From Haliotis rubra (lineage: Eukaryota): a stretch of 64,000 nucleotides of DNA. Positions within the stretch are counted from its first letter, which is position 1. Every line of letters begins with the position of its first letter. A program made the translations under genes and the position numbers. Shown one piece after another: positions 10,874-47,730 of this stretch. Location of the stretch: NCBI RefSeq assembly GCF_003918875.1, contig NW_025767333.1, forward strand, positions 1-64,000. Reading direction: 5' to 3'. Below the pieces are notes generated by a model. The model worked only from the letters and a program-made list of their open reading frames with translations, had not been told where the DNA came from and made no database searches.

Positions 10874-10879
10874 GTAAGT

Positions 10880-25158: not shown

Positions 25159-25343
25159 ATGTCGAGTGAAACAATGACTTCTTCACCTGGAAGTACGTGC
25201 AACGCGAACCCGATCGTATCCACAAAACAGTCGTTATACAGTCAACTCAGTGGTTTCAACATCGGGAAAACTGTATACAAGATGCCGAGACGAAAGTCCC
25301 CAACGAGGATAAGAAGTTAAAACGAGTCATCACTAAGAAGTAG
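25159..25343 (+). pseudogene. Small Polinton hypothetical protein (frameshift near start), possible paralog of 30890-31126
   Basis: Restored frame: MSSE..NDFFTWKYVQREPDRIHKTVVIQSTQWFQHRENCIQDAETKVPNEDKKLKRVITKK. Confidence 0.35.
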
Positions 25344-25386
25344 AATCTGTTGAAGTGACTGACTACATGTTGTCGTTACTGACTCT

Positions 25387-25725: not shown

Positions 25726-25843
25726 ACGGTATGCTGTTGTGTATGATCCGAAGTAACATTTCGCAAGCTCTACACTCATGTTTGTCTTATATGTAATAAA
25801 ACGATAGTATTGTACATTTCACGGGTCTGTTATCATTGACGTG

Positions 25844-25881
25844 TATATAAAAGAGAGTAGGTCTACACGAGGTTTACAGTT
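25844..25881 (+). promoter_or_regulatory. TATA box plus initiator-like site for the integrase unit
   Basis: TATATAAAA at 25844, preceded by TGACGT; ACAGTT about 32 nt downstream; ATG at 25906. Confidence 0.55.
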
Positions 25882-25905
25882 GAAATTACCTCACGAGATA
25901 GAAAC

Positions 25906-26991
25906 ATGTCATCGTCTCACCGGCAAGCCTTAGAGGGCTATTACTTTAACCCTAAGTCCCCAGGTGCGTATTACGGTGCCTCCAAATTTCTACAAAGTTT
26001 GAAAAGACTAGGGAAAAAGGTTACCGCATCCAAGGTAAAAACCGAGTTGAGTAAGCACGATGCTTACACGCTTCATAAGCCGGTGAAACACAAATTTCAA
26101 CGCCTCAGAGTACTTGTTAACAGAATAGATCAACAGTGGGATGTCGATCTGATGGACATGAGTCGCTATGCTAAAGCCAACGATGGTATACGTTATGTGT
26201 TGATAGCTATTGACATATTGTCACGCTATCTGTGGGTAGCCCCTTTAAGAAACAAGAAGCCCGAGTCAATCGTGCAGGCATTCAAAGACATTCTGTCACA
26301 CGGTCGCAAGCCGCAAACCATCAGAGTGGATAAAGGTACAGAATTCAAAGGCGTTTTCAAGGATTTTATAGAAAGTCAGTCCATCAAACTGTTCGTCACT
26401 CAGAACGAAGACATTAAAGCGAATTATGCGGAGAGGGTCATTCGAACGTTGAGGTCGCTCATAGCGAGGTATTTAACACACAAGAACACACAGCGCTATA
26501 TCGGTCTGTTAGCCGATTTAGTATATAATTACAATCACACCGTACACAGAAGTTTAGGCGAGTGGTCCCCTGCAGAAGTGAACCAACAAAACGAAGTCAA
26601 AGAATGGGGACATTTATACATGAATCCATCCACATTCATCACACACAAGTCCCGTTCATTTAAGTATAAAATAGGGGATATCGTGAGAATCAGTTATTTG
26701 AGAAAGCCGTTTGCTAAGGAACACAACTTGCGATGGACGGAAGAGTTATTTAAAGTAGCAACGTGTCATCGCCGACAAACCATCCCATTATACACACTGA
26801 AAGATTTTCACGAGCTCTTAAAGGGGCGCTTTTACGAAGAAGAATTACAGCGTGCCGATAAAGATCTAGATGCCGCATGGGATATTGAAAAAGTGTTAAA
26901 GAAAAAGAAAGACAAAGGGAAAGTGTACTATTTGGTCAGGTGGGCAGGCTGGCCATCGAATTCGATTCCTGGGCAGAAACAAGCTAAGTGA
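25906..26991 (+). CDS. Polinton retroviral-like (rve) integrase with C-terminal chromodomain
   Basis: DDE triad in WDVDLMDM, IRVDKGTEF and NYAERVIRTLR, plus YNHTVHRS. Chromo-like IEKVLKKK...YYLVRWAGWPS; a 1-nt shift near 26960 restores FDSW. Confidence 0.95.
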   Translation: MSSSHRQALEGYYFNPKSPGAYYGASKFLQSLKRLGKKVTASKVKTELSKHDAYTLHKPVKHKFQRLRVLVNRIDQQWDVDLMDMSRYAKANDGIRYVLIAIDILSRYLWVAPLRNKKPESIVQAFKDILSHGRKPQTIRVDKGTEFKGVFKDFIESQSIKLFVTQNEDIKANYAERVIRTLRSLIARYLTHKNTQRYIGLLADLVYNYNHTVHRSLGEWSPAEVNQQNEVKEWGHLYMNPSTFITHKSRSFKYKIGDIVRISYLRKPFAKEHNLRWTEELFKVATCHRRQTIPLYTLKDFHELLKGRFYEEELQRADKDLDAAWDIEKVLKKKKDKGKVYYLVRWAGWPSNSIPGQKQAK

Positions 26992-27003
26992 AGAATACGT
27001 AAA

Positions 27004-27429
27004 ATGGATAAATACATCAAGTTTAACAGTGCAGACTCACAGGAGTATTTCCCGGACAACACGCCTTACCGTTTCCGCGTGAAACTGTCTCAACATTTGA
27101 AACTAGAGGGCATGTGGATGGTGGCTCTGTTAGAAATGAAACTAGGCAAACTAGAGTTGAAAGATATCAATAATACCACCATTGATGTGATGTGTAACCT
27201 ATGGCGACAGTTCACACGTGGGTGAACATTATCTGCCTTTGTTGAGACGGCTCGATCTGAGAGACAAACCCAACTATTTTTTCATTATCCTTGGTACTTA
27301 CCCATCATCGTGAGAGACACCTCGGAAATCGAAGTGTATATAAAGTGTGCAGAAGGAATCCCTCATTCATTTCTGAGAGAGACCGTGAACGTATCACTCG
27401 TGTTGCGACGGTATCCCTTTCTGAGCTAA
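27004..27429 (+). pseudogene. Minor capsid protein (penton, single jelly-roll), two frameshifts
   Basis: N-terminus SQEYFPDNTPYRFRVKL...LEGMWMVALLE. Restored C-terminus YLPLLRR...WYLPII...EIEVYIKCAEG.P.SF....VSLVLRRYPF. Both halves match Polinton penton patterns. Confidence 0.8.
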
Positions 27430-27434
27430 GCACG

Positions 27435-27804
27435 ATAGACGGAAACTGTACATTCCCGACACCAAGAAGTTTGTGGACTTTTTAGTAAATCGCAAAAAAT
27501 AACCATGCGGGAAAACAGCTGATCAAAGGTCGACCCAGGTTCGCGTATCATTCCCATCGCACCCCAAGTCAAAGTACCACCTAGTCGCGACTCTAACTTG
27601 AACATAACAATGACATCACCTAATCAGAACGTGGTCCAGAGAGCCGAGGCAGCTCAGAAGCGGACCAAGGCTATAAAATGCAAAGCAGGGGACAAGATTG
27701 TCACTTTGAAGAAAGTACGTTGTGAAGGTAACAGCTCCAAACGATCCTTCATCGAGTTTAAAGATACTCCCGCTATCGACCCCAGAGACATCTTCAACCA
27801 GTAA
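27435..27804 (+). pseudogene. Basic putative virion core protein upstream of the major capsid gene
   Basis: LYIPDTKKFVDF... then TSPNQNVVQRAE...basic tract...RDIFNQ*. Position before the MCP and the terminal DIF resemble Polinton core-protein genes; the 5' part is disrupted. Confidence 0.45.
27672..27706 (+). promoter_or_regulatory. TATA box plus Inr for the major capsid gene
   Basis: TATAAAA at 27672 and TCACTT with its A at 27703 (31-nt spacing); ATG at 27807. Confidence 0.55.
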
Positions 27805-27806
27805 CC

Positions 27807-29114
27807 ATGTCTGTACTGACGGAGAAAGAGTTTACCGAAGCCCTGCCAAATAGCTTAGATTTATTCGACTTGCCACCCTATCAAACCAGCATCCTGCAAC
27901 ACTATTACGAAAACATTAGGCCACTGTCTGTCATCACCGATTCCAGTCCGGTGGAATTTCACATTCCCAACGGAGGTAAAGACTACATCAACTTGAGTCA
28001 GACTCGACTTCACGTCAAACTGAAGGTCACTCATATCGACAAAACACCCTTAGCCGATAAAGAAAAAGTAGGGCCCATCAACCTCACTCTGCAAAGCTTG
28101 TGGAGTCAGGTAAGCGTGTTTCTACAAGGTCAACAGGTCAGCTCCAGCAATGGCGGTTACCCTTACAAAGCCCTCATGGAAACCGTTCTCGACTATGGAA
28201 CAGATGCTAAGACCAGCCAACTGACTACTCAGCTGTATTACAAAGATTCAGGTGACACCGTAGACGAGTTCAACTCCGGGGACCCCTACGCCGGCGGGAA
28301 TGACAGTCTTGTCAACCGCGGAGGTTTTATCGCCGGGAGCAAGTCGCTTACCCTAACAGGACCTATCATGGAAGATGTGTTCGGTTTCCAACATCAACTG
28401 GTGAATGGTGTGGACGTGGGACTCAAACTGTTTCGTTCCAGCACATCCTTTGTCTTGATGTCAGAAGAGACCAATAAAGATTACACCGTCGAACTGCAAG
28501 ACGTGTACCTGAAAGTATGCAAACTCAGAATCAACGACGCTCTCATTGTGGCCCACAACAAACAGTTCGAAAAAGGTAATGCCATGTACCCGTACGAAAG
28601 ATCCGTGGTCAAGATGGCCTCGGTCGCCTCTTCCAGTCTGAGTTTTAACTGGGACGCCATGTTTCAAGACGAAGTTCCCAGTCGACTGATTATCGCCTTG
28701 GTGAGGTCCAATGGGGTGAACGGATCGTACATGGCTAATCCCTTCTGTTTCCAAGGAGACATCATTAAAAGCGTGGGACTGTACTTGAATGGTACCAGTG
28801 TACCACGACGCCCGTTTGAGTCGGATGACATCAAGGCTTACGCTAGCCTGTACGATTGGAATAACGAATGGCGCAAAGACAAAGGTTTGAACTTGGACAG
28901 CACAGAATTTCCCATAGGTCATGCCTTGTACGTGTTTAACCTGCAAGACATCGGAGCTGACAGATCGGAATATCTGAATCTGCTCAAGTCGGGTAATCTG
29001 AGACTAGAAGTCCAGTTTGCTCAGGCGGTCGCCCATACCTTCAACGTCATCGCCCTGGCCAAGTTTCCGGCACTTATCTAAATCGACCAAAGCCGGAACG
29101 TGTTTCTAAAGTAG
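27807..29114 (+). CDS. Major capsid protein (double jelly-roll, hexon-like); premature TAA near the C-terminus
   Basis: SLDLFDLPPYQTSI...PVEFHI...YINLSQTRLHVKLKV...LQSLWSQV...YPYKA...NPF.F...GNLRLEVQF. The ORF stops at 29081, but the frame continues IDQSRNVFLK* to 29114 (typical D..RNV ending). Confidence 0.92.
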
Positions 29115-29117
29115 TCA

Positions 29118-29618
29118 ATGTACAAACAACAGTTACAGTGTGCCATCCGTAGCGATCCCAGCCTCCGTAGTGTCATGGTGCACGTGGGTGTGTATACGAG
29201 AGATACCATAGCTAACATCGCTTCACCTTCCAGTGGAAGACCGTGGGGATGTGTGGTTAACACTGACTTAGCACGAGGCGAGGGACAACACTGGCTCGCT
29301 TTCTACTTTGACAGGAGTGGAGTCGGCGAGTTTTTTGACAGTTACGGACAGAAACCGAGTTACTATCATCGTGAATTTGAATACTTTGTAAAGAGACATT
29401 CTCGCAGTTATCAATATAACGCGACTGTTTTACAACAATCTAATTCGAGTGCTTGTGGATTCTATTGTTTATATTACTCGTTACAGAAATGTAGAAATAG
29501 TGCTACTTTACGTGATATCGTACATATGTTTAGTACAGACAAAGCACGCAATGATGCGTATGTCACTCAGTTTATCTGTGACTACTTTAAGTACTGTTTA
29601 ACATGTTCCATGACATAA
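29118..29618 (+). CDS. Adenain-like cysteine protease (virion maturation)
   Basis: VVNTD...GQHWLAF, EFFDSYG and LQQSNSSACGFYC give an intact His-Asp-Cys triad with the oxyanion Gln. Confidence 0.93.
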   Translation: MYKQQLQCAIRSDPSLRSVMVHVGVYTRDTIANIASPSSGRPWGCVVNTDLARGEGQHWLAFYFDRSGVGEFFDSYGQKPSYYHREFEYFVKRHSRSYQYNATVLQQSNSSACGFYCLYYSLQKCRNSATLRDIVHMFSTDKARNDAYVTQFICDYFKYCLTCSMT

Positions 29619-29793
29619 CACAATCCTTGTTCCTGTAGAGTGGTAGATGATCAAATAAAAAACAGAGAAAATGTCTATTGTGTTATGCCATGTATGTATG
29701 TATGGATGGATGGATGGATGGGTGAATGATTATTTAAGACTCAAGTTTCACGAGTAAGTTTCATTCTCGAGTGTGACATCGTTCGAGACAGTC

Positions 29794-30291
29794 ATGGCCA
29801 GATGTGTGCTGAGACATAACCTGTTTTACAGATAACTTCTTTCACTGAATGATTACGAAGAAACTTTGCGTGATATTCGTGGCATGAATAATGAACAAAT
29901 CAATGGTACTAAAGCCATTGTAAAGCGACTGCTCAATGCTCGCATACCAGTCACACGTGGAGAGCAACGCCGTTTCTTGCAGCCTAATCCCCACAACAAT
30001 TATTTGAGGATGTTGCGACGTATCGCTCGAGCGGAGACAACGGGTAGAAGCATTAAGCGAACCCTGTTAAACCATACTCCCTTGATTCGGTTTATATTCA
30101 AGTATAAACATGTCAGACAGGTCAGAGACGAAGCCCAAAGAGCTCTCCAAAGGCTGGCTAGGCGTCGTCAGCAACAACAGCCACTCATACGGAGTGATAG
30201 AATGCATCAGTTAAGACAGGCACTCCGTGAGCTAACACTATGTCCGAGAAATGTTTGCTCCCTATCGTCACACCTACCACCTTGTCCGTGA
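29794..30291 (+). pseudogene. Basic helical Polinton protein, paralog of 31123-31473 (in-frame stop at 29833)
   Basis: MARCVLRHNLFYR*LLSL...EQINGTKAIVKRLLNARIPVTRGEQRRFL...LRRIAR....KRTLL aligns by eye with the 31123 protein. TATTTAA at 29731 and Inr TCATTC at 29761. Confidence 0.6.
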
Positions 30292-30842
30292 TTGGGGGCA
30301 CGTGTAGTGGGAAAACCTATTGGATGAAACAGTTGTTACAGAATGCCAATACAGTGTTTGATAAGCCACCCAACCTAATCGTGTACTGTTACGGGGTGTG
30401 GCAGGATCTGTACGCCGACATGCAGCAATTGATCGCCAACATTCAGTTTCATGAATAGTTGCCCAGGGAAAGCGATTTACGTTTGTGGTCCGATCAGTCG
30501 AGCAAAAACATGATTCTCGTGTTAGACCATCTCATGATGGACATATGTACCAGCAAACTCATGTTAAATGTGTACACCACTTTATCACATCATCTAGGCA
30601 TTACCGTACTCAACCTGCTACAGTCTGTCTACCCTAAAGGTCCTTGTTCACGGACCGTGAGCGTGACTACGCATATGTTCGTATTAATGAGCAATCCCCG
30701 TTCCGCGCACGAATACAAGATTTTAGCCTCGCAACTGTTTCCAGGTCAAAGTCGTGGATCACCATACAGTGATCCGGAATACGGATGCTTACGCACCGGT
30801 ATCTTACCCGGCGAACTTTGCACCCTCTATTTTCCGAAATAA
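30240..30842 (+). pseudogene. FtsK/A32-like genome-packaging ATPase, inactivated
   Basis: Walker A GGTCSGKT; IVYCYGVWQ; in-frame TAG at 30456-30458; Walker B ILVLDHLM (DD expected); SHHLGITV..L.Q; apparent C-terminal deletions before LRTGILPGE. Confidence 0.9.
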
Positions 30843-30889
30843 AACCGATAAACACTCTTTGGTCGAGTCAGTCTTACAGCAGCCGCGCT

Positions 30890-31126
30890 ATGAGCAAGGT
30901 CTACTTTTGGACGATCGTGTGTAACCCACCACCATCTACCTTATCCGTAAGAGCTACCCCGCAGCAGGCTGAAGAGATCACCTTAAAGGAGAGCCCCACG
31001 TTCTTTTCATCGAAAGAGGCATGCATAAACTCACTTCGACAAGCTTGGTGCACCGGGGTAGACCTAGTTAATTCATACGGGGAACCTACGTGCTACATTT
31101 ACAAAAAGAATCGGTACACACCATGA
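30890..31126 (+). CDS. Small Polinton hypothetical protein
   Basis: MSKVYFWTIVCNPPP...ESPTFFSSKEACINSL...; the stop overlaps the next ATG (ATGA), as in compact viral genomes. Confidence 0.55.
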   Translation: MSKVYFWTIVCNPPPSTLSVRATPQQAEEITLKESPTFFSSKEACINSLRQAWCTGVDLVNSYGEPTCYIYKKNRYTP

Positions 31127-31473
31127 GTGAGTGTATTCGAGACAATGTGGATTTTCTCCACGTACTGAGACAATCTAAGCCTGTACAGCGTAAAACGTTA
31201 CTGTCTCATCTGACCAAACCCCAGTTTAAGACGATCATCACGTTGTTACATAACATCATCATCGGTTACATTCCCATGACGAATCAAGAGAAAAAGACCT
31301 TGTACCAGTACAGGAAGATTATTCGGCTACTGAACAGCAAACAAGGAGGATATCGAGCTAAAAGGGAGTTGTTGGTTTCTTTTCACTTTATATTACCACC
31401 TTGTGTACGAGCATTGGATCGATATTTCTATCAGTCGGACCATAATGAAACCCATGATTCTGTTATCTCGTGA
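31123..31473 (+). CDS. Conserved basic helical Polinton protein
   Basis: MSECIRDNVDFLHVL...QRKTLL...HNIIIGYIPMT...KKTL.QYRKIIRLL...KRELL resembles a recurrent Polinton ORF with an N.L.G.IPL.....K.L......R.L pattern. Confidence 0.7.
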   Translation: MSECIRDNVDFLHVLRQSKPVQRKTLLSHLTKPQFKTIITLLHNIIIGYIPMTNQEKKTLYQYRKIIRLLNSKQGGYRAKRELLVSFHFILPPCVRALDRYFYQSDHNETHDSVIS

Positions 31474-32053
31474 GACCTACCAACGTCTGGTTCAAGCTGC
31501 TCCGAAGATGGAAAGCGGCTCCCATCCGATCCTGAAACCCCCACCAGCTCCTATCCCCCAGCAGGAGCAGACTCCAGTAGTCAACACTACAGCTGAGGAA
31601 TCAGACATGGAGCGTGACACGTCCATCCACAATATCATAGCCTCACTACACAACCAGCTAACAGGAGGAGGAAATGCAACAGCAAGCCACCCCCTAGACG
31701 ATGTCCTAACACCACGCTATGTGTCGCTATGGCAGTATCTCAACCAGCAGAAAGAGCTCGGTCGCATTAACTGGAATGCTAAACTCGAATGGTTGGATGA
31801 ACATGGAGACCCTATAAAACATTCTAATGTGATTGACTGCATTCGACAGTTTGTGCTAAAGAGTGGTGATAGAAAAGATGTTGGATATCAAGCCTTTACC
31901 CGTCAACTGACACAACTAACCAACTCGCAAGCTTTTTACACTCAGGTGGGAAAAGGCAAGAGAAAACGAACTCAGCCCATGTACGTGCGTGGCAAAGTGA
32001 AGCACGGTGTTCCCGGTGCGAAGAAGTTCAAACCATTGGAAACTGCTTATTAA
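31445..32053 (+). CDS. Conserved Polinton hypothetical protein
   Basis: MKPMILLSRETYQRL... and INWNAKLEW..HGDPIKHSNVIDCI...VGYQAF..QL resemble the recurrent Polinton WN...E...G..I..SN..D motif; AATAAA at ~32194. Confidence 0.7.
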   Translation: MKPMILLSRETYQRLVQAAPKMESGSHPILKPPPAPIPQQEQTPVVNTTAEESDMERDTSIHNIIASLHNQLTGGGNATASHPLDDVLTPRYVSLWQYLNQQKELGRINWNAKLEWLDEHGDPIKHSNVIDCIRQFVLKSGDRKDVGYQAFTRQLTQLTNSQAFYTQVGKGKRKRTQPMYVRGKVKHGVPGAKKFKPLETAY

Positions 32054-32832
32054 AATAGTATTGAATCTCTCATGTGATTACAAGTTGTTAGTTTCAAACG
32101 TGAATGGATATAAAGTTTGTCTCATGTTGCCACTGGAATGTATTAAAATGACTATATTGTCTGAATATGTATCATCATAACAAGCTGTTAAAGTAATAAA
32201 CACTGAATAGATAGAATGGTAGTTTGTGTGAATGCTCTGCTGTATGCAGAGTCGCAGTACGCTGAGGTCGCTCTTAAAGGGTTTGTCCCCCATGGCGCCT
32301 ACAATAAGCATCCTGCCTACACCCCAATTCACTAACAATAAACATAATAGCACAAAGCATCGCTCTCGAGTCTTGGTACAGAATGGCTCCCATGAAACTT
32401 AGTCATAGCCTCGTTTCACCTACACCAAAGGGAACTAGTCTTATTTTCTCACAGTGTACTCTATACTGGAATCATAGACGGTATATTCCGTTCCAGTGGA
32501 TATGGCTTGAATGTAAATTGCTGTATTATTATTTTTTCATACACGACTTCTAGAAAGTAGACATACATATCATAAGACAAAACAACAAACACTTTCCAGA
32601 ATAACATAGATTTATTCACGTATATACATTTGACAAACATTAATTTGATTTATAATAATATTATAGGAAAATGGTTTGAGAAACCAAAATATCACAGCTG
32701 GTAAAGAGAATACTTTTGATAGAAATACTTGATATGTTTAACACAATATGCTTCTAATAATAAATAAATAAATAAATAACTACAATATGTACACTACTGG
32801 AGTTAAGGGAATGCAAGAGGGATGACCTTTTC

Positions 32833-35800
32833 TTAATTTTCAGCTAAATTTTCTAAAAGTTGGGCCAAAAAGGTGTCGGTGTCATCCAACCTACCATCGC
32901 GGGCAGGCCAGGGACAAAGCTCGAGGTCGAGAGGTGCCGTGTGAATGCCGTCGTTCAACACTCGACGTTTACAGTAGAGATAACTCAACCCCTGACGTTT
33001 CTGATGATAGGAACACATGATATTCCCCTTGAGTCGGAAACCTCTGTTCAACCCCTCGCCGGGTACTCGGGTATGTAAAACATCTCTAAACACTCTTAGT
33101 GGTGTTTTCAATGTTCGTTTTGAGATGCCTTTACAGCAGAATTTTACCCGGCGTTCGAAATGACCGACGATAGGGGTGGTTGAACGGAGGCATCGGGCCT
33201 TGTTATTGACGGGCTTGATGCGACCGAGCCGGTGGTGAGCTCGGCGTAGTAAACGTTGTGCCGTACGTACGCCCGAGCTCGGCGCTGGCTTTGGAGTTTG
33301 CTGAAGACTGGACTGTGACACCAAGTACGTTTTACTACACAGTCCGATCATCTCGTCTCCTTCGTACTCGAGTTTGAATAAACCCGGAGTACGTCTCGTG
33401 AAGGGTGTGGACAGAACAGCAACTGTGTGGAAACCAACGCGTGAGGTAGCTATCGTCCGGGTTATTGTCACCGAAGACCCTCTTCAACTGGTCCTGGTAC
33501 GCCAACTGTTTGCCGGGTTTAATGACATCGGACAGACATTTCGCGCTCAAAGCCATGTAAGCGTTGACCGTGTCCATCTCCATGTATTCAAAATCACTAC
33601 GATCCACGTACACGTCCATGCAATCGTAGTAAAATTGAAGCATGCGCAGTTAAGCGTACTGCAGGATAAAATACCCCAGCTGCACGTGCGTATCGAGGTG
33701 TAAGACTTTCTTGGCTTTCTCTACCTCGAAATAACGGAGTTGCCCGTAAGTTTAGCCGACTGGGTGCTGAGGGATCTCGGTTGGCTTCTCGTCGGGCTGA
33801 GCACACGTCCCGAACAAACTGCTAAAAACACGCGTTCGGGGTGTACTCAACGACTTGGTACATGCGATCGACCACCATGCCGTGCTGTAAATACCATTGC
33901 AACAGAGGGGTGGCGATCAGGATTTTCCCCGCCTTTAACCCGCCAATGAGCATACGGCACGGTTTTGTAGTCAAGTCGTTCTCCCTGATGTACTCCTGCA
34001 TGTGTTCCCCGAGAACCTCGAAAGGAACTTCTGCATTGCAGAACAGGGGAGTCATCTCTTGAAAGTACTCCCACGGGGAGAGACGAGTGCCGTGAGGGTT
34101 CTGTCCGGGCATCCAGTGATCGGGGACGCGAATGTCCACTTCCACCATACCGAACAGTTCCCCTTTTTCCACAGCGTTCAACATGTCCCGTTCCGAGACC
34201 TGCTTCCATCCTTTCTTTTGAGAAAAAGGTGGTTGTCGACCTCGGATTTCACACCATCGTCGAGGAAGGACTTCTGTTTGAGACTGGAATACCATGCCTC
34301 GCCCAGAGGGGGAAGCCGAGTCTCGTTTAGCTTTTCCGGAGTGTTGAGATACTCATACGGGAAAAATCCCTTTTTCTCTTGCACTCCGAATGCTTTCAGA
34401 AACTGAGCATAACTCGTTCCGGAAGAAAGATATTGCCTGACGTCAAGAAATTTGAAACTTTGATTACTTTGACACAAGTAAGCATTGTTTTTCTTCACGG
34501 TGAAAGCCTGAGATTCCTTGTCGTCTCGAGAGAGATGTTTGGGTAGTTTCTCCTTAATGGTATTCAGGTCGTAACAAGCTGAATTAAATCTGAAGATGGG
34601 GACTTGAGAACAGTACCCCAGAAGCTTCCCGCAGAGATCGCTCACATGCTTTCCCCACTTAGCCTCGGGTGTAGAGTGTGCGCGAGTAGGTTTGCCATGG
34701 GCGGGGTGGTTGTCACCCTCCCTGACGTTGACATCATCATTATCATCATCATAATCGTCAACAGTCGTCTGGTCCTCCACAGGCAACGACTTTATCCACT
34801 CGCGCAAGCTTTCTAACACCTCTTTATATTTTTCTTTGGCTAGCTTGTTAACGGCTTTGCCTATTTCCGTCATGTATGCCAACATGGCAGCAATCAATCG
34901 ATCCGGATCGGAATCGACGATGCAGTGTGGTGAAGTAAACCCTTCCACATTGGAACACACGCTGACTGAGATGGGGTGGTGTTCTTGTGTCCATCTCAGT
35001 TTCTGGGTTTCGGTATTAATCGGTTTAAAAAAACACTCAAAATCGAATACCATGAACCACGGAAAATATCTGTCTCTAGGCTCGACGACAAGTCGAACTC
35101 TTCCAGCTCATCAGACACGGTCTTTGGAGTGTGGTGGAAACCACCCGGGAACCGCAAAGTCATGCATTTAAATGCATGTGTTCCTGATACAACCCTCGAG
35201 ATTTATACACGGGTTGAGCTATCCCTGTTACGTCAAGAGTGAACACGCTCACATTCACACGGAAACAGGCTTCAAAGTGAGGTAAGAGAGCTGGGTCGAG
35301 ACCTTTATACTCTTCGGGACCAATCTTATAGAAAGACTGGAGATGATGGTCCCGACAGTACACGACCCACTGATAGTAAAGAGCTTTGGTAGGCTTTTCT
35401 AAAGCACCCCGACTTGTAGGATCTCGATGCAATGCCAAACACCGGAAAGCGCATAAGTGATCTTTATAAAGTTGTATAGTCTTCTTGTTATAATCTAAAG
35501 AAAGGATAGCTTTATGATTTTTAATATATTCGGGGAGAGGGGCTGGAGAGTGGCCGAGCGGAAAATTTGTTCTGTAAATAAAGAAATTCACATTGGTAAT
35601 CAAAACAGGTTTCCATTTGGTATCGGGGCGTTGTTTGAGGAGTAAAGACATGACATCTAAGCTTTCCAGTCTCTGGCGTAACCCGTTCGAGATCCTCCAA
35701 CTCGGTGATCTAGAGAGGACTAGTAAAGAGAGGATCGACAGTGTAAGGATGGAAATAGCGATAGCGTCCCGTCTCCACGTGCCGTAGGATGACACCGAAC

Positions 35801-36216
35801 GCTAAATTCATCCTAAAACTATGATTTAACGATTGATAGATATCCCTAGCGCGTTCCATCAACTCACCTGTGGAAAAGTTGTTGTTAAGGGGGAGGTTGT
35901 AGATTGAAAACACTTCGCCGGGTTGCCCCCGTGCGAGGATAAACGGAGCGTCCAGGTCATAGGCTTCCTGGAGTCCGGGGCTCCGTCACCTCTCCAGTGC
36001 TGTCGTCTACCCACGGGGCGGGACCTTCTCCCCATGGGCGTGGTTGGAGCTCACTAACAGCAGCATCGGTATCCATACTCCCGCCGGACTGCGATGGTAG
36101 GATACGGTGTCCCTCTATCATCTGATGACGGTAGAGAGACAACCGATCCTCGAAACGCCTATGACACGTCCGGCAAGTACAACCATCCGATGCTGCGATG
36201 CGGGAAGACGAGGGAG
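32833..36216 (-). pseudogene. Protein-primed family B DNA polymerase (pPolB), main exon; frameshifts, stops and internal deletions
   Basis: N-region LPEYIKNHKAI...DHLCAFRCLA; ExoI VFDFE; ExoII FNSACYDL; KGFFPYEY; LFGMVEVDI; truncated motif B KLTGNS; motif C degraded to EMDTVN; C-terminal RTPGLFKLE...LCSKTY...CKGI...KRRVLNDGIHT. ExoIII and motif A appear deleted near 34250. Confidence 0.93.
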
Positions 36217-36470
36217 CTGGTGACAGAGAAAAAATTCAATGTATGAATACTAAGTCTCATATAACAGCATCATTCACTCACTACGAGCTCTTATGCTTCA
36301 AATAAAACTCATGACTAACACATGGTATAATACTTCCAAAGCGAATACATATAAACACATTCTGTGATACTTCCAAAGCGAATACATATTAACACTATGA
36401 CGAACTGAATTAATACATAATTCAGGGCTACCTAAAACCCTTAGCATATAAAATACTATTCAACATCTAC

Positions 36471-37509
36471 CTCCACTGCCACGAGAGTTTCCCGCCCTTG
36501 CAGCCTGACCAGAGGAGGTGGACGGTGTCGGCTGGCTTGTCCCTGAAATACAAAAACAATATATTGAAAACATTCCCGGCCGGTGCTNNNNNNNNNNNNN
36601 NNNNNNNNNNNNNNNNNNNNNNNNNNNNNNNNNNNNNNNNNNNNNNNNNNNNNNNNNNNNNNNNNNNNNNNNNNNNNNNNNNNNNNNNNNNNNNNNNNNN
36701 NNNNNNNNNNNNNNNNNNNNNGGTACGAACCTCGGTAATACTAACCATCGTACATGGATGAATGAAGTGACAGAGAGATTACCCCCACTAACCGGCACTC
36801 CTCTCGAGGTAGACGGGCGTGCGTGAACATCTGTTTGCGTAGTTGTGCCTGTAAATATACATCATTATCTGTACATACTAAACTAAAACACACTCGAAAA
36901 TACACGGAAGCAGTACATAGACAAGATTAATGACGGAGATGAACATCAACTCACCGGAAGAATGAACGCGCCGAAAATGCACGCCCAGCTCACGGGGTGA
37001 AGGGAACACCTCGGGGCATTTCTGTATATAGAAGTAACATTTTTAAGCAAAATGCTCTGAATTATAGGGGAAGTTTGTCGCTATGTCGCTGTAACATTTA
37101 ACTTTACTGTTGATAACCACTGCGATACTATGTCAAAGTAACATTTGAAACTGTAGACAACATTGCTCAGGTCTTTAAAATATACACCTTATGAAACAGT
37201 CGGTTAAAGACATAGGAAGATAATATCTCTACATATGATCAAATATATCTGAAGATATTATAGCAGACAGAAGCGAGAACTTACACATAAATAATAAACA
37301 CTACTCACGCTACATCGATATTCCGATAGCCGTTGTTGCGACAAGGCACATTTGTGTTGCTTCAGTTTTTGATTTGAAGCAAAAGATTTTGTGCATGGAA
37401 AGCACACGTAACGTTCTCCCCGGTGAACTGATCGCACATGGCGGCAAAGGTTATCTTTTTTATTAAAACCTTTCCCGCACTGTGGACAGGTAAATTGTCT
37501 GAAAGACAT
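36471..37509 (-). CDS. Spliced 5' exons of pPolB (37509-37309, 37021-36955, 36848-36783, 36542-36471) encoding zinc fingers and an S/T/G linker
   Basis: All have GT..AG boundaries with compatible phases (0,1,1,1) and join in frame to 36216. Finger 3 is split by an intron (YRCS|KCPEVFPSPRELGVHFRRVH); finger 4 (CRTCHRRFEDRLSLYRHQMIEGH) opens the main exon. An N-gap could hide another exon. Confidence 0.8.
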
Positions 37510-37827
37510 AACGTTTCTTTCAATTCACGCTAGAGATACAAAAAATGTTTCTACAGGATTTCATAAACTTGGTCATGAAACTCATAATTACTATACTAAC
37601 ATATACCCTTTTATTGAAATCAAAACATTTGTTAGCTGTAGCATTCACATTTATAAAAATTAAATAGTGAGACCTCATTAAGAAGTATACTTACGCGTTT
37701 GTTGAGTCCATGTTCAGACTGGTCACGTAAAAGTTGATGAATTCTCGCTCGTTGTTGAAACTAAAATAACGCTCTGGTGTGCAGATGATGTCTATATAGG
37801 ATATTTTACGAATAATGATGGACAAAT

Positions 37828-38093
37828 AGTAACTATCCATTCAACGCGCCTGTGTATCTCACTGTAGATATGACTGACAGGTTGGGATAGGGACCACCCA
37901 TGTATGCTCACACGGGAAAAGACATTGAACCTTTTCCTTCACAGCCCTCAGTTCACACACCGAATGGTACACACACCTGCCTGTTGCATTGACTGTTCAG
38001 TCATGCATGTCGTCCTCCTTGAGTACTGAGTATACTTCGTGAACTATGGTTTTCAGTCTGATTACGTTACTTGGAATGTGATGCCATCTACAA
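37828..38093 (-). repeat. Inner inverted-repeat block (right copy)
   Basis: Reverse complement of 23477-23728 with a short insertion. Confidence 0.9.
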
Positions 38094-38815
38094 GTCTAAC
38101 CTGATTCGTTACTTTTCAAACACCTACACTTATATTTTCCGAGCATAATCCTTAATTTAGGTTGAAGTAAAATGTATTTATCATTATATTGTATGATGTT
38201 TCCAACGTCTAAATTCCTAAACTAGGTTCTCTCTTCGAATGAAGGGTAATTATTGTTAAACACGTTGCTCACCGCTAAATTTTCTCATTTCAAATTCTGT
38301 CTTTTTTCCCAACAAACCTAGCTGCATGCTGTCGCACTGNNNNNNNNNNNNNNNNNNNNNNNNNNNNNNNNNNNNNNNNNNNNNNNNNNNNNNNNNNNNN
38401 NNNNNNNNNNNNNNNNNNNNNNNNNNNNNNNNNNNNNNNNNNNNNNNNNNNNNNNNNNNNNNNNNNNNTTTAACATTGATATATATAGTTATCCATATGT
38501 ATTTCAAACCGTTAAACAACACGCCCTGAAATTTAGTCCTGAAGTAAAACTAAAATTGGATACATAGTTTCATATACACAATACAGTTTATTTGTTTCAT
38601 AAGCTTACATTTGCCGGGGGAAGGAAAAAAAAGCTCGCGTGAAATAACGTTTAAACATCGGCTTCAAGTCGGCACAGGGCTGAATAATTCAGCGCCTTCT
38701 TTACAAAGGGTGAACAATAGTCCAACGCTTTGCCCAGCGCGGGCTATTTGACGGTGATCACGTGACTTGGATCAGCCAATACATTTCCCTCCACCTTGCC
38801 TCCACCAAATACTAT

Positions 38816-39623
38816 TGTTTCAATAAGCAGATTCCTTGACTCTACATTTCTATTTCTTTCGTCTCTCTCCAAATGACGTGAATTTCATGGTATTATACGT
38901 GTGCTATATGATATTGATATGCTTCCATCCATGTGTAGTTCAAGCCTCTTATTTCAAACATCTCGCTGTCTAGTAAAACTAAAACTGTATCCATTAGTGT
39001 ACATGGCTCAAAATCATTTATTTCTCATCAAGCTATATTTGGATGGGAAAAAAACACACACTAGTATGAAATAACATATAAACCTACACCAACTTTCCAT
39101 TACTTTGATGGTGTTATACTTATACAGGACACGTTCTGTATGAAATGTTTTTCAACTACATTTTACATGACTCGAAGATTCCGTCTCCGAACCATGTTGA
39201 CACAACCCGTCTCTATTGTGATACGATGTACTTTCAACACACACACCCTGCATTCATCAAAACAGGTCGCACGCTCTGTCGAGCGCGGGCTATTTAAAAC
39301 GACGGAGTCACGTGAGTTGTCAAGCGCGCTCAATTCAAAACTGGCTGACGGGTACTGTCTGTCTGTCTATTCAGGGCAGCATGCTATACATAGCTCTATT
39401 CAGGACACTTTGCTTTTGTTTTTCTCTCGCTTAATGAAGAGTTTTCTGCACGACTGCCTTAAAACACCCACACCTTTCATTGAACTTTCCTGACCTGTGA
39501 CGTGCTGTCTATATTTACCTATCAGCTATGATCACGTGACTTACATCAGCCAATCCATGTCCTTACCTTCCCTCCACCTTCCCTCCACCAAAAGGACCGT
39601 CTGCTCCCACCTACTATACTACT
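38816..39623 (-). repeat. Polinton right terminal inverted repeat (~808 bp)
   Basis: Ends ...cccacctactatactact; reverse complement of 22484-23288. Confidence 0.95.
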
Positions 39624-41049
39624 AACAATGCAAATGTTATGTTTTTAATTCAATGTACAGGTAATCTTATCGTAAAAAATATCAATAAATGAATTTTTTG
39701 GATTTTCCATTGACAATTACAAGATAAAATGTATAAATAATTTCCATTAATATTATCAGTTTTACTTATAAGGTTTGAATTAAATCGCTGTCCATTAACT
39801 TGTTCATATGAAACTGCAATATTAGTCCCAATGTATTGACTATTGCAAACAATAGGACCTAATGTCAATGTTGCAGTTATGGCTACGCTTGATCTACTAA
39901 CACTTGTGTAAAGGGTTAAAATATGGTGTGATACTCTAAATGTGTCAGTTTCTTTTGTAACTTTTATTCAAACAATCGAAAACTTTCAAAAAATATAACG
40001 GTGTACCCTATATCCACGTATGATATGATATTGAACAAGGCCAAATGTAGGAACTGAAATTGGTTTCATGAAATTTTTTATCTGAATGATACGCAAAATA
40101 TACATCATAGTACTGAAAGTGTAATCAGAAGGATAGGACAAAATGGCGGCTTCGCTGACAAGGGTACACATGATTTTGCGAGGACTCTTCCCTTGATTCA
40201 GGGATCGTTTGTACATAAATATGAAATGTAAGTTATCAGAGTGACTCTGACTATCTGTGTATTGTTATATGTTTTCTTTGTAAGTAAGAGAAGAAGCCAG
40301 AAATGCTGATAATTACCGTTGTCGTTCTGCGTGATTTTGGGTCTGTTATGGCGTCACGCTGCATGGAAACTTTGTCAATTGCTTATGAAATATCAAATCA
40401 TTGCATTGTATCTATTTTTAATTTCCTCTTTCTTGCTATGATCGATACTCTTTCCATACATATTTTAAAGGTATTGAGCCATTGCAAGCAATGAATAGCC
40501 GGCTGCTACGCAGTATTAATCGGAATGTTTCTTTGTTTGTCTTCCGAGCACAGCGTTTGTTTTCACACCCAATATCCAGTTGGTATTGGTAACAAAGACC
40601 AACTGTGATTTGATTTTAAAATGTATGGGGAATTCATTGATGCATTTGTCTCAGCTGACTATGAAATATACGTGATGTGATAGGCAACTCAATACCGGCC
40701 TTTGCGAGACGTGGTTTTGTAAACACTATCCAATATGGCGGAAAGCGCACTTCGGCGTTCGTGTAAATATATTTTCGAAAACATCCAAACCGATTCTAGG
40801 TTCATCGGCAGCGTTTCAGATTATCATTAGTGATATCATGAAAAACTGATTTCAGTTATCATTAATATGTTATTTTTGAAATTCAGTACTCCCAGTAATT
40901 ATCCGATTTTCACATTTGAAAACATACTGTCTACACTGTAGAGCAAATAATGCTGTGAATCGTGATTTCGTATTGTGTATAAAATGGCGACATTTACGAT
41001 GAAGCCTATTTTGAAAGGTTATTTAAGCACTTTAGCTTTGTCTGAGATT

Positions 41050-42011: not shown

Positions 42012-45000
42012 CAAGGCTATGACAAGGTTACAGTGACAGTGTGAGGCTATGGTAAGGTTACATTGACAGTGTGCGGCTATGGTAAGGTTACATTGACAGA
42101 GTGAGGCTGTGACAAGGTTACAATGACAGAGTGAGGATATGACAAGGTAACAGTGAAGTGTGAGGCTATGACAAGGTTACATTGTCAGTGTGAGGCTGTG
42201 ACAAGGTTACATTTACAGAGTGAGGATATGACAAGGTAACAGTGAAGTGTGAGGCTATGACAAGGTTACAGTGACAGAGTGAGGCCATGACAAGGTTACA
42301 GTGACAGTGTGAGGCTGTGACAAGGTTAAATTGACAGTGTGAGGCTGTGACAAGGTTACATTGTCAGTGTGAGGCTATGACAAGGTTACATTGACAGTGT
42401 GAGGCTATGACAAGGTTACAGTGACAGTGTGAGGCTATGACAAGGTTACATCGACAGTGTGAGGCTATGACAAGGTTACATCGACAGTGTGAGGCTATGA
42501 CAAGGTTACAGTGACAGTGTGAGGCTGTGACAAGGTTACATTGTCAGTGTGAGGCTATGACAAGGTTACATTGACAGTGTGAGGCTATGACAAGGTTACA
42601 TTGACAGTGTGAGGCTATGACAAGGTTACATCGACAGTGTGAGGCTATGACAAGGTTACAGTGACAGTTTGAGCCTATGACAAGGTTACATCGACAGTGT
42701 GAGGCTATGACAAGGTTACAGTGACAGTGTGAGGCTATGACAAGGTTACATCGACAGTGTGAGGCTATGACAAGCTTACAGTGACAGAGTGAGGCTATGA
42801 CAAGCTTACAGTGACAGAGTGAGTCTATGACAAGCTTACAGTGACAGAGTGAGGCTATGACAAGGTTACATTGACAGAGTGAAGATGTGACAAGGTTACG
42901 TTTACAGAGTGAGGATGTGACAAGGTTACGTTTACAGAATGAGGCTATGACAAGGTTACATCGAGAGTGTGAGGATGTGACAAGGATACGTTTACAGAGT
43001 GAGGATGTGACAAGGTTACGTTTACAGAGTGAGGCTATGACAAGGTTACATGGACAGTGTGAGGCTATGACAAGCTTTCAGTGACAGAGTGAGGATGTGA
43101 CAAGGTTACGTTTACAGAGTGAGGATGTGACAAGGTTACGTTTACAGAGTGAGGCTATGACAAGGCTACATCGACAGTCTGAGGCTATGACAAGCTTACA
43201 GTGACAGAGTGAGGATGTGACAAGCTTACAGTGACAGAGTGAGGCTATGACAAGCTTACAGAGACAGAGTGAGTCTATGGCAAGGTTACATTGACAGAGT
43301 GAGGCTGTGACAAGGTTACAATGACAGAGTGAGGCTATGACAAGCTTACAGTGACAGAGTGAGGCTATGACAAGCTTACAGTGACAGAGTGAGGCTATGA
43401 CAAGGTTACAGTGACAGAGTGAGGCAATGACAAGGTTACAGTGACAGAGTGATTCTATGACAAGGTTACATCGACAGTGTGAGGCTATGACAAGCTTACA
43501 GTGACAGAGTGAGTCTATGACAAGCTTACAGTGACAGTGTGAGGCTATGACAAGGTTACATCGACAGTGTGAGGCTATGACAAGGTTACAGTGACAGAGT
43601 GAGTCTATGACAAGGTTACATCGACAGTGTGAGGCTATGGCAAGGTTACATCGACAGTGTGAGGCTATGATAAGGTTACATCGACAGTGTGAGGCTATGA
43701 CAAGGTTACAGTGACAGAGTGAGTCTATGACAAGGTTACATCGACAGTGTGAGGCTATGACAAGGTTACAGTGACAGTGTGAGGCTATGACAAGGTTACA
43801 TCGACAGTGTGAGGCTATGACAAGGTTACAGTGACAGTGTGAGGCTATGACAAGGTTACATCGACAGTGTGAGGCTATCACAAGGTTACAGTGACAGAGT
43901 GAGGCTATGACAAGCTTACAGTGACAGAGTGAGGCTATGACAAGGTTACATCGACAGTGTGAGGCTATGACAAGCTTACAGTGACAGAGTGATTCTATGA
44001 CAAGGTTACATCGACAGTGTGAGGCTATGACAAGCTTACAGTGACAGAGTGAGTCTATGACAAGCTTACAGTGACAGTGTGAGGCTATGACAAGGTTACA
44101 TCGACAGTGTGAGGCTATGACAAGGTTACAGTGACAGAGTGAGTCTATGACAAGGTTACATCGACAGTGTGAGGCTATGGTAAGGTTACATCGACAGTGT
44201 GAGGCTATGATAAGGTTACATCGACAGTGTGAGGCTATGACAAGCTTACAGTGACAGAGTGAGTCTATGACAAGCTTACAGTGACAGTGTGAGGCTATGA
44301 CAAGGTTACATCGACAGTGTGAGGCTATGACAAGGTTACAGTGACAGAGTGAGTCTATGACAAGGTTACATCGACAGTGTGAGGCTATGGCAAGGTTACA
44401 TCGACAGTGTGAGGCTATGATAAGGTTACATCGACAGTGTGAGGCTATGACAAGGTTACAGTGACAGAGTGAGTCTATGACAAGGTTACATCGACAGTGT
44501 GAGGCTATGACAAGGTTACAGTGACAGTGTGAGGCTATGACAAGGTTACATCGACAGTGTGAGGCTATGACAAGGTTACAGTGACAGTGTGAGGCTATGA
44601 CAAGGTTACATCGACAGTGTGAGGCTATCACAAGGTTACAGTGACAGAGTGAGGCTATGACAAGCTTACAGTGACAGAGTGAGGCTATGACAAGGTTACA
44701 TCGACAGTGTGAGGCTATGACAAGCTTACAGTGACAGAGTGAGGATGTGACAAGCTTACAGTGACAGAGTGAGTCTATGACAAGCTTACAGTGACAGAGT
44801 GAGTCTATGACAAGCTTACAGTGACAGAGTGAGGCTGTGACAAGGTTACAATGACAGAGTGAGGCTATGTCAAGCTTACAGTGACAGAGTGAGGCTATGA
44901 CAAGCTTACAGTGACAGAGTGAGGCTATGACAAGGTTACATCAACAGTGTGAGGCTATGACAAGGTTACATTGACAGAGTGAAGATGTGACAAGGTTACG

Positions 45001-47730
45001 TTTACAGAGTGAGGATGTGACAAGGTTACGTTTACAGAGTGAGGCTATGACAAGGTTACATCGAGAGTGTGAGGATGTGACAAGGATACGTTTACAGAGT
45101 GAGGATGTGACAAGGTTACGTTTACAGAGTGAGGCTATGACAAGGTTACATGGACAGTGTGAGGCTATGACAAGCTTACAGTGACAGAGTGAGGATGTGA
45201 CAAGGTTACGTTTACAGAGTGAGGATGTGACAAGGTTACGTTTACAGAGTGAGGCTATGACAAGCTTACAGTGACAAAGTGAGGCTATGACAAGCTTACA
45301 GGGACAGAGTGAGGCTATGACAAGGTTACATCAACAGTGTGAGGCTATGACAAGGTTACATTGACAGAGTGAAGATGTGACAAGGTTACTTTTACAGAGT
45401 GAGGATGTGACAAGGTTACGTTTACAGAGTGAGGTTATGACAAGGTTACATCGACAGTGTGAGGATGTGACAAGGTTACGTTTACAGAGTGAGGATGTGA
45501 CTTGGTTACGTTTACAGAGTGAGGCTATGACAAGGTTACATGGACAGTGTGAGGCTATGACAAGGTTACATGGACAGTGTGAGGCTATGACAAGCTTTCA
45601 GTGACAGAGTGAGGATGTGACAAGGTAACGTTTACAGAGTGAGGATGTGACAAGGTTACATCGACAGTCTGAGGCTATGACAAGCTTACAGTGACAGAGT
45701 GAGTCTATGACAAGGTTACATTGACAGAGCGAGGCTGTGACAAGGTTACAATGACAGAGTGAGGCTATGACAAGCTTACAGTGACAGAGTGAGGCTATGA
45801 CAAGCTTACAGTGACAGAGTGAGACTATGACAAGCTTACAGTGACAGAGTGAGGATGTGACAAAGTTACGTTTACAGAATGAGGATGTGACAAAGTTATG
45901 TTTACAAAGTGAGGATGTGACAAGGTTACGTTTACAGAGTGAGGCTGTGACAAGGTTACAGTGACAGTGTGAGGCTATGAAAAGGTTACATTGACAGAGT
46001 GAGCCTGTGACAAGGTTACGTTTACAGAGTGAGGAGGGTGACAAGGTCACGTTTACAGAGTGAGGCTATGACAAGCTTACATTGACAGAGTGAGAATATA
46101 ACAAGCTTACAGTGAAGTGTGAGGCTATGACAAGGTTACATCGACAGTGTGAGGTTATGACAAGGTTACAGTGACATTGTGAGGCTATGACAAGCTTACA
46201 GTGACAGAGTGAGGTTATGGCAAGCTTACAGTGACAGAGTGAGTCTATGACAAGGTTACATTGACAGAGTGAGGCTATGACAAGGTTACATTGACAGTGT
46301 GAGGCTATGACAAGGTTACATTGACAGTGTGAGGCTATGACAAGCTTACAGTGACAGAGTAAGGCTATGATAAGGTTACATCGACAGTGTGAGGCTATGA
46401 CAAGGTTACATCGACAGTGTGAGGCTATGACAAGGTTACAGTGACAGTGTGAGGCTATGAGAAGCTTACAGTGACAGAGTGAGGCTATGACAAGCTTACA
46501 GTGAGAGAGTGAGTCCATGACAAGGTTACATTGACAGAGTGAGGCTATGACAAGCTTACAGTGACAGAGTGAGGCTATGACAAGCTTACAGTGACAGAGT
46601 GAGGCTATGACAAGGTTACAGTGACAGAGTGAGGCTATGACATGGTTACATCGACAGTGTGAGGCTATGACAAGCTTACAGTGACAGAGTGAGGCTATGA
46701 CAAGGTTACATTGACAGAGTGAGGCTATGACAAGCTTACAGTGACAGAGTGAGGCTATGACAAGCTTACAGTGACAGGTGAGGCTATGACAAGCTTACAG
46801 TGACAGAGTGAGGCTATGACAAGGCTACAGTGACAGTGACAGTGTGAGGCTATGACAAGGTTACATTGACAGAGTGAGCCTGTGACAAGGTTACGTTTAC
46901 AGATCGAGGATGTGACAAGGTTACATTGACAGTGTGAGGCTATGACAAGGTTACATTGACAGAGTGAGCCTGTGACAAGGTTACGTTTACAGAGTGAGAA
47001 GGGTGACAAGGTCACGTTTACAGAGTGAGGATGTGACAAGGTTACAGGGACAGTGTGAGGCTATGACAAGGTTACATTGACAGAGTGAGCCTGTGACAAG
47101 GTTACGTTTACAGAGTGAGGAGGGTGACAAGGTCACGTTTACAGAGTGAGGATGTGACAAGGTTACATTTAGAGAGTGAGGATGTGACAAGGCTACGTTT
47201 AGAGAATGAGGCTGTGACAAGGTTACAGTGACAGTGTGAGGCTATGACAAGGTTACATTTACAGAGTGAGGCTATGACAAGGTTACATTGACAGAGTGAG
47301 GCTGTGACAAGGTTACATTGACAGAGTGAGGCTATGACAAGATGACATTGACAGGGTATGGCTATGGCAAGGTTACATTGACAGGGTGAGGCTATGGCAA
47401 GGTTACATTGACAGGGTAAGGCTATGGCAAGGTTACATTGACAGGGTGAGGCTATGGCAAGGTTACATTGACAGGGTGAGGCTATGGCAAGGTTACATTG
47501 ACAGGGTGAGGCTATGGCAAGATTACATTGACAGGGTATGGCTATGGCAAGGTTACATTGACAGGGTGAGGCTATGGCAAGGTTACATTGACAGGGTGAG
47601 GCTATGGCAAGGTTACATTGACAGGGTGAGGCTATGGCAAGATTACATTGACAGAGTGAGGCTATGGCAAGATTACATTGACAGGGTATGGCTATGGCAA
47701 GGTTACATTGACAGGGTGAGGCTATGGCAA
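42012..47730. repeat. 30-bp satellite, ~5.7 kb (~190 copies)
   Basis: Unit gaggctatgacaag(g/c)ttaca(g/t)(t/c)gacag(t/a)gt. Confidence 0.97.

Follow-up and report, generated by a model that had tools for sequence, protein, structure and literature searches.

We analyzed a 64,000-nucleotide (nt) stretch of the Haliotis rubra genome (contig NW_025767333.1, positions 1 to 64,000; hereafter called the window), which contains a Polinton/Maverick element at 22484 to 39623, and we describe here the structure of its DNA polymerase gene, pPolB. The gene lies on the minus strand, as do all of the exons, introns and sites assigned to it below. We consider it moderately probable that this pPolB gene belongs to a Polinton copy with internal deletions, that its zinc-finger leader carries five predicted introns that were likely gained, and that the fingers would be kept together with the terminal protein (TP) on the 5' ends of the DNA after a cut made by the vOTU domain. 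The window copy is transcribed and spliced, yet it cannot yield a whole polymerase. When the exons are joined, the order ZF1-ZF2-ZF3-linker-ZF4-TP-vOTU-Exo-Pol (ZF, zinc finger; Exo, exonuclease; Pol, polymerase) matches that of the RefSeq abalone models and of relatives that encode the leader without introns.

Exon structure and splicing of the leader

The predicted pPolB promoter is a TATA-like site (TATATA) found in the sequence at 37793 to 37798, with a predicted start site. Beyond it lie the 17-nt coding part of a mini-exon (E0, 37695 to 37711), which holds the start codon and ends in phase 2, and exon E1 (37309 to 37498), which encodes the C2H2 finger ZF1 (37488 to 37423), the C2HC finger ZF2 (37404 to 37348) and the first cysteine of ZF3. 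E1 matched zf-C2H2 in Pfam with 34 bits (cut-off, 25.2). Exon E2 (36955 to 37021) encodes the remainder of ZF3, and exons E3 (36783 to 36848) and E4 (36471 to 36542) each encode an S/T/G linker with a PSTS motif. Judging from its open pieces and from the domains of a RefSeq homolog, the last exon (32833 to 36216), which is broken here, encodes ZF4 (~36175 to 36107), the TP domain with a candidate priming Thr codon (35621 to 35619), the vOTU domain with its Cys codon (35453 to 35451), the exonuclease and the polymerase. The introns are confined to the leader, and ZF4 already lies within the polymerase exon. Searching the genome at the DNA level yielded 60 matches, and the window was aligned with 19 other copies, comprising 17 close copies and two of a sister subfamily (L021 and L022). 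Matches at the window's own place (L001 and L019), a second match to the same copy as L012 (L020) and three copies that were too diverged (L023 to L025) were left out of this 20-row alignment.

The preliminary description of this DNA had placed four exons of 201, 67, 66 and 72 nt ahead of an acceptor at 36216, and these lengths, the GT-AG ends and the phases 0, 1, 1 and 1 were all verified. ZF3 is indeed cut between YRCS and KCPE by a phase-0 intron, and the linker exons E3 and E4 are symmetric phase-1 exons, as had been said. The start codon did not hold up: the ATG at 37509 is replaced by CTG in the sister subfamily (2 of the 20 copies), and it falls within the pyrimidine tract before the AG at 37500 to 37499. 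A further short leader exon with its donor had also been suggested upstream. That exon is supported, but it is predicted to be coding and not just a leader. Translation likely starts in the 17-nt coding mini-exon at ATG 37711, which is kept in 20 of 20 copies and is followed by a donor GT in 19 of 20. Since these 17 nt end in phase 2, matching the acceptor at 37499, the gene would have five introns, not four. The same short peptide stands directly ahead of ZF1 in the RefSeq models.

The five introns are intron 0 (37499 to 37694; 196 nt, phase 2, predicted), with an acceptor AG in 19 of 20 copies; intron 1 (37022 to 37308; 287 nt, phase 0, predicted), which separates the two cysteines of ZF3 and has its GT and AG in 20 of 20 copies; intron 2 (36849 to 36954; 106 nt, phase 1); intron 3 (36543 to 36782; 240 nt, phase 1), with GT in 19 of 19 and AG in 18 of 18 copies; and intron 4 (36217 to 36470; 254 nt, phase 1). 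Their GT-AG ends and donor consensus are those of spliceosomal introns of the U2 type. The possibility that the finger exons had been placed here by mis-assembly was rejected, as sibling copies hold the same exon order uninterrupted. A tandem duplication giving rise to E3 and E4 was not detected at the DNA level: the likeness of the exons alone was not above that of shuffles (882 of 2000 as high), and when the acceptors were included (6 of 2000 as high) a shared AT-rich tract accounted for it. An origin from introners found no support, 9 of 10 intron pairs being no more alike than shuffles and the remaining pair reaching 1 of 500, although old introner insertions could have lost their likeness.

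Removal of introns was followed in 4 of the 9 listed sequencing runs. Three of these (X1 to X3), all from one study, were guessed to be RNA, none being recorded as such, and X4 was DNA-like. Contigs from X1 and X3, with 71 and 46 letters on the short side, respectively, cover E4 and skip exactly 36217 to 36470, in agreement with the predicted junction of 36471 with 36216. The DNA-like run X4 lists neither this joint nor that of intron 2. Along 220 nt the X3 contig is identical to the window and has 8 differences from the closest of the 19 other copies, and the X1 contig shows 1 difference against 6 for the nearest other copy. This near-identity makes the present locus, or a near-identical allele, the likely source of both contigs. 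The predicted junction across intron 2 was also found, in an X1 contig on the sister copy L021, which joins with GT..AG ends and has 66 letters on the short side; a sister-subfamily RNA contig starts matching at the first base of E2. For intron 3, the sister X1 contig runs from E3 into 17 letters that resemble the start of E4; this fits the anticipated donor at 36783, over a short match.

A window-like X1 contig instead uses a donor at 36793, 10 nt before 36783 and out of frame, with 24 letters on the short side (the tool's bar is 31). Of the 19 copies that have the site, this one alone shows an 11-nt deletion at 36782 to 36770, which makes the 36783 donor weaker and may account for the use of the cryptic one. 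Joints skipping E3 or E4 were absent among the few joints found, at a contig depth of 2.5 to 5. For introns 0 and 1 no joint was recovered; the runs compared do not cover exons 0 and 1 and so give no evidence either way.

The last exon of the window copy is split into six open pieces by frameshifts, stops and internal deletions. Compared with full-length siblings it is short of ~130, ~850 and ~120 nt, near 35161 to 35166, 34245 and 33735, respectively, and the ~130-nt deletion at 35161 to 35166 takes out the His region of the vOTU domain together with a further C2HC finger. An X1 RNA contig crosses this same deletion, so that a defective copy is transcribed. Some small frameshifts of the assembly are missing from the RNA contigs; they may be allelic or result from assembly errors. 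The introns are kept as well in full-length siblings with matching 6-bp flanks.

The splice sites were compared among copies, which had been proposed as a check on the gene structure. Nine of the 10 splice dinucleotides are retained in all, or in all but 1 or 2, of the 18 to 20 copies that hold them, whereas acceptor 4 is retained in 8 of 19 copies and lost in 11. In the sister subfamily, all 10 dinucleotides are present and three donors switch between GTAAGT and GTGAGT. Identity between the window and this subfamily is 41 to 42% in intron 1, 33% in intron 2 and 57 to 61% in intron 4, against 78% in E2, 70% in E3 and 84 to 86% in E4. Intron 0 (67%) and exon 1 (68%) are equally conserved, so the contrast between exons and introns is not uniform. 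The retention of the sites beside diverged introns 1 and 2, the codon pattern of E2 given next and the joints at introns 2 and 4 indicate more than a chance arrangement. Codon changes in the same comparison were 7 synonymous-only and 4 non-synonymous among the 22 codons of E2, and 12 non-synonymous and 0 to 1 synonymous among the 21 codons of E3, whose length of 66 nt is unchanged; the latter pattern is expected of a linker. By-eye reading indicates that the distant, decayed copies L023, L025 and L142 retain several of the same splice sites, and the donor context of intron 1 is retained in L025 and L142. The same kind of reading of L025 (2150 to 2030; G000:C1035), which represents a decayed related family, found apparently one linker exon with three tandem PSTS-like units in place of E3 and E4. 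At L143 (957 to 1160; G000:C2137), which may belong to another Polinton family, a C2H2+C2HC doublet closely resembling exon 1 is followed by another finger 1.1 kb on.

Finger leaders of relatives and the origin of the introns

The nearest named proteins are from Haliotis rufescens and H. cracherodii, with 91 to 93% identity over the ZF4 region. Two RefSeq models, XP_048238897.1 (1676 amino acids) and XP_071085581.1 (1680 amino acids), carry both zf-C2H2 and DNA_pol_B_2 and are labelled uncharacterized. Compared as proteins, the RefSeq models have the peptide joined alike at every junction, including that of the start mini-exon. Truncated Haliotis models are labelled as host finger proteins ("zinc finger protein 324A/835/567-like"), and the Haliotis models are not recognized by name as Polinton polymerases. 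The RefSeq models P0001 and P0008 open with a different peptide ahead of the shared ZF1 exon, a sign that there may be an alternative first exon.

The same leader is encoded without introns elsewhere. A search of the genome with the TP region gave 73 matches, and 20 distant loci were examined. At least two fingers stood in a single open frame with the TP region in 12 of these 20 loci; the remaining 8 were frameshifted or decayed, several of them with fingers spaced as in related intact loci. Among metagenome loci, 29 of 79 were usable (a match plus at least 700 nt upstream), the other 50 being left out. Twenty-one of the 29 had at least two fingers in frame with the TP region, 2 had frameshifted arrays, 2 had one finger, and 4 distant loci had none. 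A clear intron pattern was seen in none of the 29 metagenome loci or the 20 loci of the abalone's own genome, which span several clades. Loci L063 and L124 have the layout of the window, namely, C2H2, C2HC, C2H2, linker and last finger. At the protein level, 30 of 36 homologs from outside the abalones have at least one finger before the TP and 27 have at least two. The C2H2+C2HC doublet of exon 1 follows 10 of 45 fingers in intronless leaders, compared with 127 of 3530 in 126 generic finger proteins. A phmmer search against representatives was flooded by generic finger proteins, and no relatives were found in viral_contigs or in phage records.

In a tree of the TP region with 45 rows (P0003 left out), the three abalone models form one clade among single-frame leaders, with a support of 100 in the Shimodaira-Hasegawa-like approximate likelihood ratio test (SH-aLRT). 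Because relatives encode the same finger leader without introns, the introns are likely later gains, and the simplest reading, which is unproven, is that all five were probably gained inside an ancestral intronless leader in the abalone lineage. The preliminary description had proposed that host splicing attaches the finger module to the replicase. Splicing does join the finger exons to the pPolB exon; the intronless relatives argue that the leader was not built in this way.

Proposed role of the fingers and alternative explanations

A model of the homolog P0005 was built from a 54-sequence alignment, with a mean pLDDT of 76.7; an alignment-free model (pLDDT 39) was dropped. The P0005 model has four well-predicted finger folds, the split ZF3 among them, a disordered linker (residues 128 to 185) and a compact domain behind ZF4. 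The best matches of the finger part were DNA-bound C2H2 arrays. The fingers look like DNA binders, and the fold and Pfam matches speak to the type of finger and not to binding. Residues 278 to 395 gave matches to Y-family little-finger/PAD structures in 9 of 50 rows, with Z scores of 4.5 to 5.6; the best TP-fold match had a Z score of 5.6 and a root mean square deviation of 3.3 over 93 aligned residues, and 4IR1 had values of 5.5 and 2.8 over 91. Between helix 2 and strand 4, where a PRD1-like TP fold would carry its hydroxyl residue, the loop that precedes the last strand has Thr or Ser in 54 of 54 rows, with Thr in 49. The vOTU Cys is present in 52 of 54 rows, and the His motif is present in 26 of the 32 homologs that hold the Cys motif. 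No vOTU structure was among the fold matches for the P0005 model, which covers that domain in part only. A putative VSR insert was considered and not confirmed, as the stretch of P0002 from 1040 to 1180 matched DNA_pol_B_2 and unnamed clusters alone. Of the 39 linkers, 18 hold a basic cluster resembling a nuclear localization signal, against a mean of 10.8 after shuffling (3 of 1000 shuffles reached as many); the two abalone spliced linkers do not hold it.

These features can be fitted into a sequence of events. Host RNA polymerase II would transcribe the gene from the TATA-like site, which lies where the terminal repeat has its inner edge. Splicing would then attach the 17-nt start exon, the pair of finger exons and the pair of linker exons to the long last exon; such joining was observed at introns 2 and 4, weakly at intron 3, and is inferred at introns 0 and 1. 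In the abalone lineage, the five introns would have been added to the 5' 1.5 kb of the gene, altering its expression and leaving the protein unchanged. Introns may be retained because they improve the expression of an integrated gene or allow escape from the silencing of intronless transcripts. Krupovic et al. (2024; PMC11071308) assigned Polinton TPs to the Y-family little-finger fold and hypothesized that the vOTU domain cuts behind the TP and that the new strand keeps the TP attached. On that view, all that lies N-terminal of the TP would stay on the DNA ends, and each new end would covalently carry a finger-linker-TP unit. The fingers might then bind DNA, most likely within the terminal repeat, and serve either to position the primer at the origin or to hold the excised genome in the nucleus. 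Short direct repeats rich in G (GGAGGGAAGG-like) were noted at 22500 to 22545 and 39565 to 39600, less than 60 nt from both ends. They are a candidate zinc-finger target, because the ZF1 helix of many copies resembles what we take, from the recognition code, to be a GAG reader.

Several points weigh against this account. The RNA evidence is thin, coming from three runs guessed to be RNA in one study at a depth of 2.5 to 5; introns 0 and 1 have no joint; and the sole window-like contig that crosses intron 3 is out of frame. The tool itself rates Z scores of about 5.5 as middling, and ZF1 alone has what we presume to be a textbook-like recognition helix, which varies between abalone families. 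The exon 1 peptide scores 54.7 bits against host-type finger proteins and 52.8 bits against the best intronless leader, so exon 1 cannot be placed by score alone. The branch that nests the spliced clade has an SH-aLRT support of only 82 in a tree with a midpoint root and no outside root, and a 28-row tree of the loci in the abalone's own genome separates the groups and gives no direction.

Other explanations draw on the same observations. The fingers could be a transcription factor acting on the promoter in the terminal repeat, with introns that allow short finger-only products to repress or tune the family. The TATA-like site sits at the inner edge of the repeat, one contig uses the out-of-frame donor, several finger-TP models in RefSeq are truncated, and the 11 of 19 copies that have lost acceptor 4 are mostly palindromic ones with finger exons at both ends, all of which would suit an autoregulator. 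However, the cryptic donor is not found in the sister subfamily and its use fits the private deletion of this copy, and relaxed selection in non-autonomous copies could also explain why acceptor 4 was lost, exon 1 being frameshifted in many such copies. We regard autoregulation as unlikely, and give slightly less credence to protein docking, in which host proteins (e.g., USP7) would be recruited to the TP by the C2HC fingers together with the linker's PSTS/xGPS motifs and DNA binding would be minor. Viral proteins and MDM2 bind USP7 through PSTS and EGPS motifs (PMC6955280), and PSTS, PSSS or xGPS occurs in 10 of 39 linkers (shuffled mean, 0.9; 0 of 1000 shuffles as high). This motif set was picked post hoc among related rows, and 29 of 39 linkers have no motif. 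The recognition-helix residues differ widely between families, as docking would permit; the finger part best matches DNA-bound arrays, though the fold alone would give that result.

It appears improbable that splicing captured the finger module, for example from a host gene, and varied it by exon skipping. The introns do occur in the leader alone, E3 and E4 are symmetric, the related family L025 apparently has one linker exon and not two, and exon 1 scores equally against host-type finger proteins. Against capture, the same module is present in intronless relatives, two of them with the same four-finger order and a similar third-finger helix; ZF4 is inside the polymerase exon; and no skipping joint was among those found. 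Least credible to us is an ancestral origin of the introns with loss in the intronless families. The uncertain root of the tree leaves room for this, but none of the 29 metagenome and 20 own-genome loci surveyed across clades has a clear intron pattern, and Polintons are not known to have a reverse-transcription step that could remove introns cleanly. We retain gain of introns within a finger leader as the preferred reading.

The element and its relation to known systems

With its inverted arms and core-type genes, the ~17.1-kb element at 22484 to 39623 (no strand assigned) is a Polinton, of which the window holds an internally deleted copy. Both ends read AGTAGT. The terminal inverted repeats have 5'-AG ends, and their arms (22480 to 23759 and 37796 to 39627, with homologous segments at 38816 to 39627 and 37796 to 38143) are 95% alike across 816 nt. 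The right repeat region (37796 to 39623, minus strand) adjoins the TATA-like site at its inner edge. The 6-bp flanks of the window copy are unequal; in three full-length siblings with both ends located they are identical in two and match at 5 of 6 positions in one. Inside the element, an rve integrase at 25861 to 26991 scored 33.5 bits (cut-off, 32.6) and was accompanied by a chromo match under the cut-off. A protease-like gene matched Peptidase_C5 under the cut-off (E = 0.0022), and a putative packaging ATPase has a Walker A motif at 30294 in a broken frame. The capsid-like gene at 27762 to 29081 had no Pfam match and lay near clusters in which 22 to 30% of members have a DJR-like domain (score, 0.98). 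PF03175 was matched by a close RefSeq homolog of the polymerase (28.7 bits; cut-off, 25.8) and not by the window's own broken pieces. A PC4 gene of the single-strand-binding type (PF02229; E = 6e-12) lies immediately inside the left terminal repeat at 23833 to 24333 on the plus strand.

Palindromic non-autonomous derivatives were also noted in the genome, at G000:C2338 (~259500 to 273500), C97 (~66200 to 76600) and C2372 (~660400 to 677500). Both of their ends carry, in inverted orientation, the terminal repeat with the finger exons and the 5' portion of pPolB; other core genes are absent, and all six arms are without acceptor 4. Paired matches of the same kind were found on C649 and C2571. 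Elsewhere in the window there is a 99-bp repeat array on the plus strand (4177 to 10877), which we take to read like ankyrin repeats and which is followed by open frames of 441 and 1093 amino acids, and a 30-bp satellite of 190 copies (42014 to 47730) with long minus-strand open frames.

A broader proposal, which we hold tentatively and think doubtful as a whole, is that throughout a clade of Polintons from marine invertebrates the genome ends are capped by a TP bearing a fast-evolving finger array that serves as origin reader or chromatin tether, and that chromosome-resident lineages repeatedly gain leader introns that act as a spliceosome-dependent on/off switch between full replicase and finger-only product. 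If this were true, the replicase would resemble a gene of the host, and its terminal protein would contain an origin reader or tether of a kind not described for protein-primed replicons. The finger array before the TP in most relatives examined would offer a testable answer to how the origin is found or the genome retained in the nucleus. The family, with intronless relatives in the same genome, would offer a dated natural series of intron gain in a virus-like DNA element. As Polinton core genes are described as intronless and are annotated by open-reading-frame finders, spliced polymerases are overlooked or given the names of host zinc-finger genes, which is the case in the RefSeq abalone entries.

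The abalone gene shares the TP fold, the Ser/Thr loop, the vOTU Cys and His and DNA_pol_B_2 with the pPolB (TP-vOTU-Exo-Palm) of PMC11071308. It differs in the four-finger array and linker ahead of the TP, the words "zinc" and "intron" being absent from the accessible portion of that paper, and in its priming candidate, which is Thr in 49 of 54 rows here and Ser or Tyr there. Vertebrate Mavericks (Barreat and Katzourakis 2021; PMC8097293) have the same plan of terminal inverted repeats, 6-bp duplications (here in full-length siblings) and core genes; the genes of intact elements are described there as free of introns, in contrast to the five introns of the abalone leader. Since intronless genes are a described vertebrate trait and not a taxonomic criterion, the abalone element is counted as a variant. 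Alpha adintovirus PolB (Starrett et al. 2021; PMC8502044) combines OTU with PF03175 (pfam03175) and accompanies an integrase with a chromodomain, as here, where the chromo match is weak, and is presented, in the portion of that paper available, without fingers or splicing. Some adintoviruses encode the finger protein Ziftr (Buck et al. 2024; PMC11071296) as a separate gene and not as a leader on PolB. Jeong et al. (2023; PMC10748475) reported a mollusc pPolB2 with a VSR insert, and the accessible text of that paper does not contain the word "finger." In the literature searched, neither a pPolB with a finger leader nor splicing of an animal pPolB gene was found described; Repbase and supplementary files, which lay outside this search, may mention a spliced POLB.

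In adenovirus, a tiny upstream exon supplies the start codon. The adenovirus E2B region (PMC11304566, PMC7070027) is likewise a protein-priming replication gene of the same supergroup that relies on host splicing with small 5' exons. Adenovirus splicing yields TP and polymerase separately, whereas the abalone gene encodes one polyprotein and its introns interrupt the finger array. Introners of dinoflagellate eupolintoviruses (PMC12166617) provide another case of spliceosomal-type introns inside integrated Polinton-like elements. Unlike these, the abalone introns are not copies of one another, and they have been kept while their sequences diverged.

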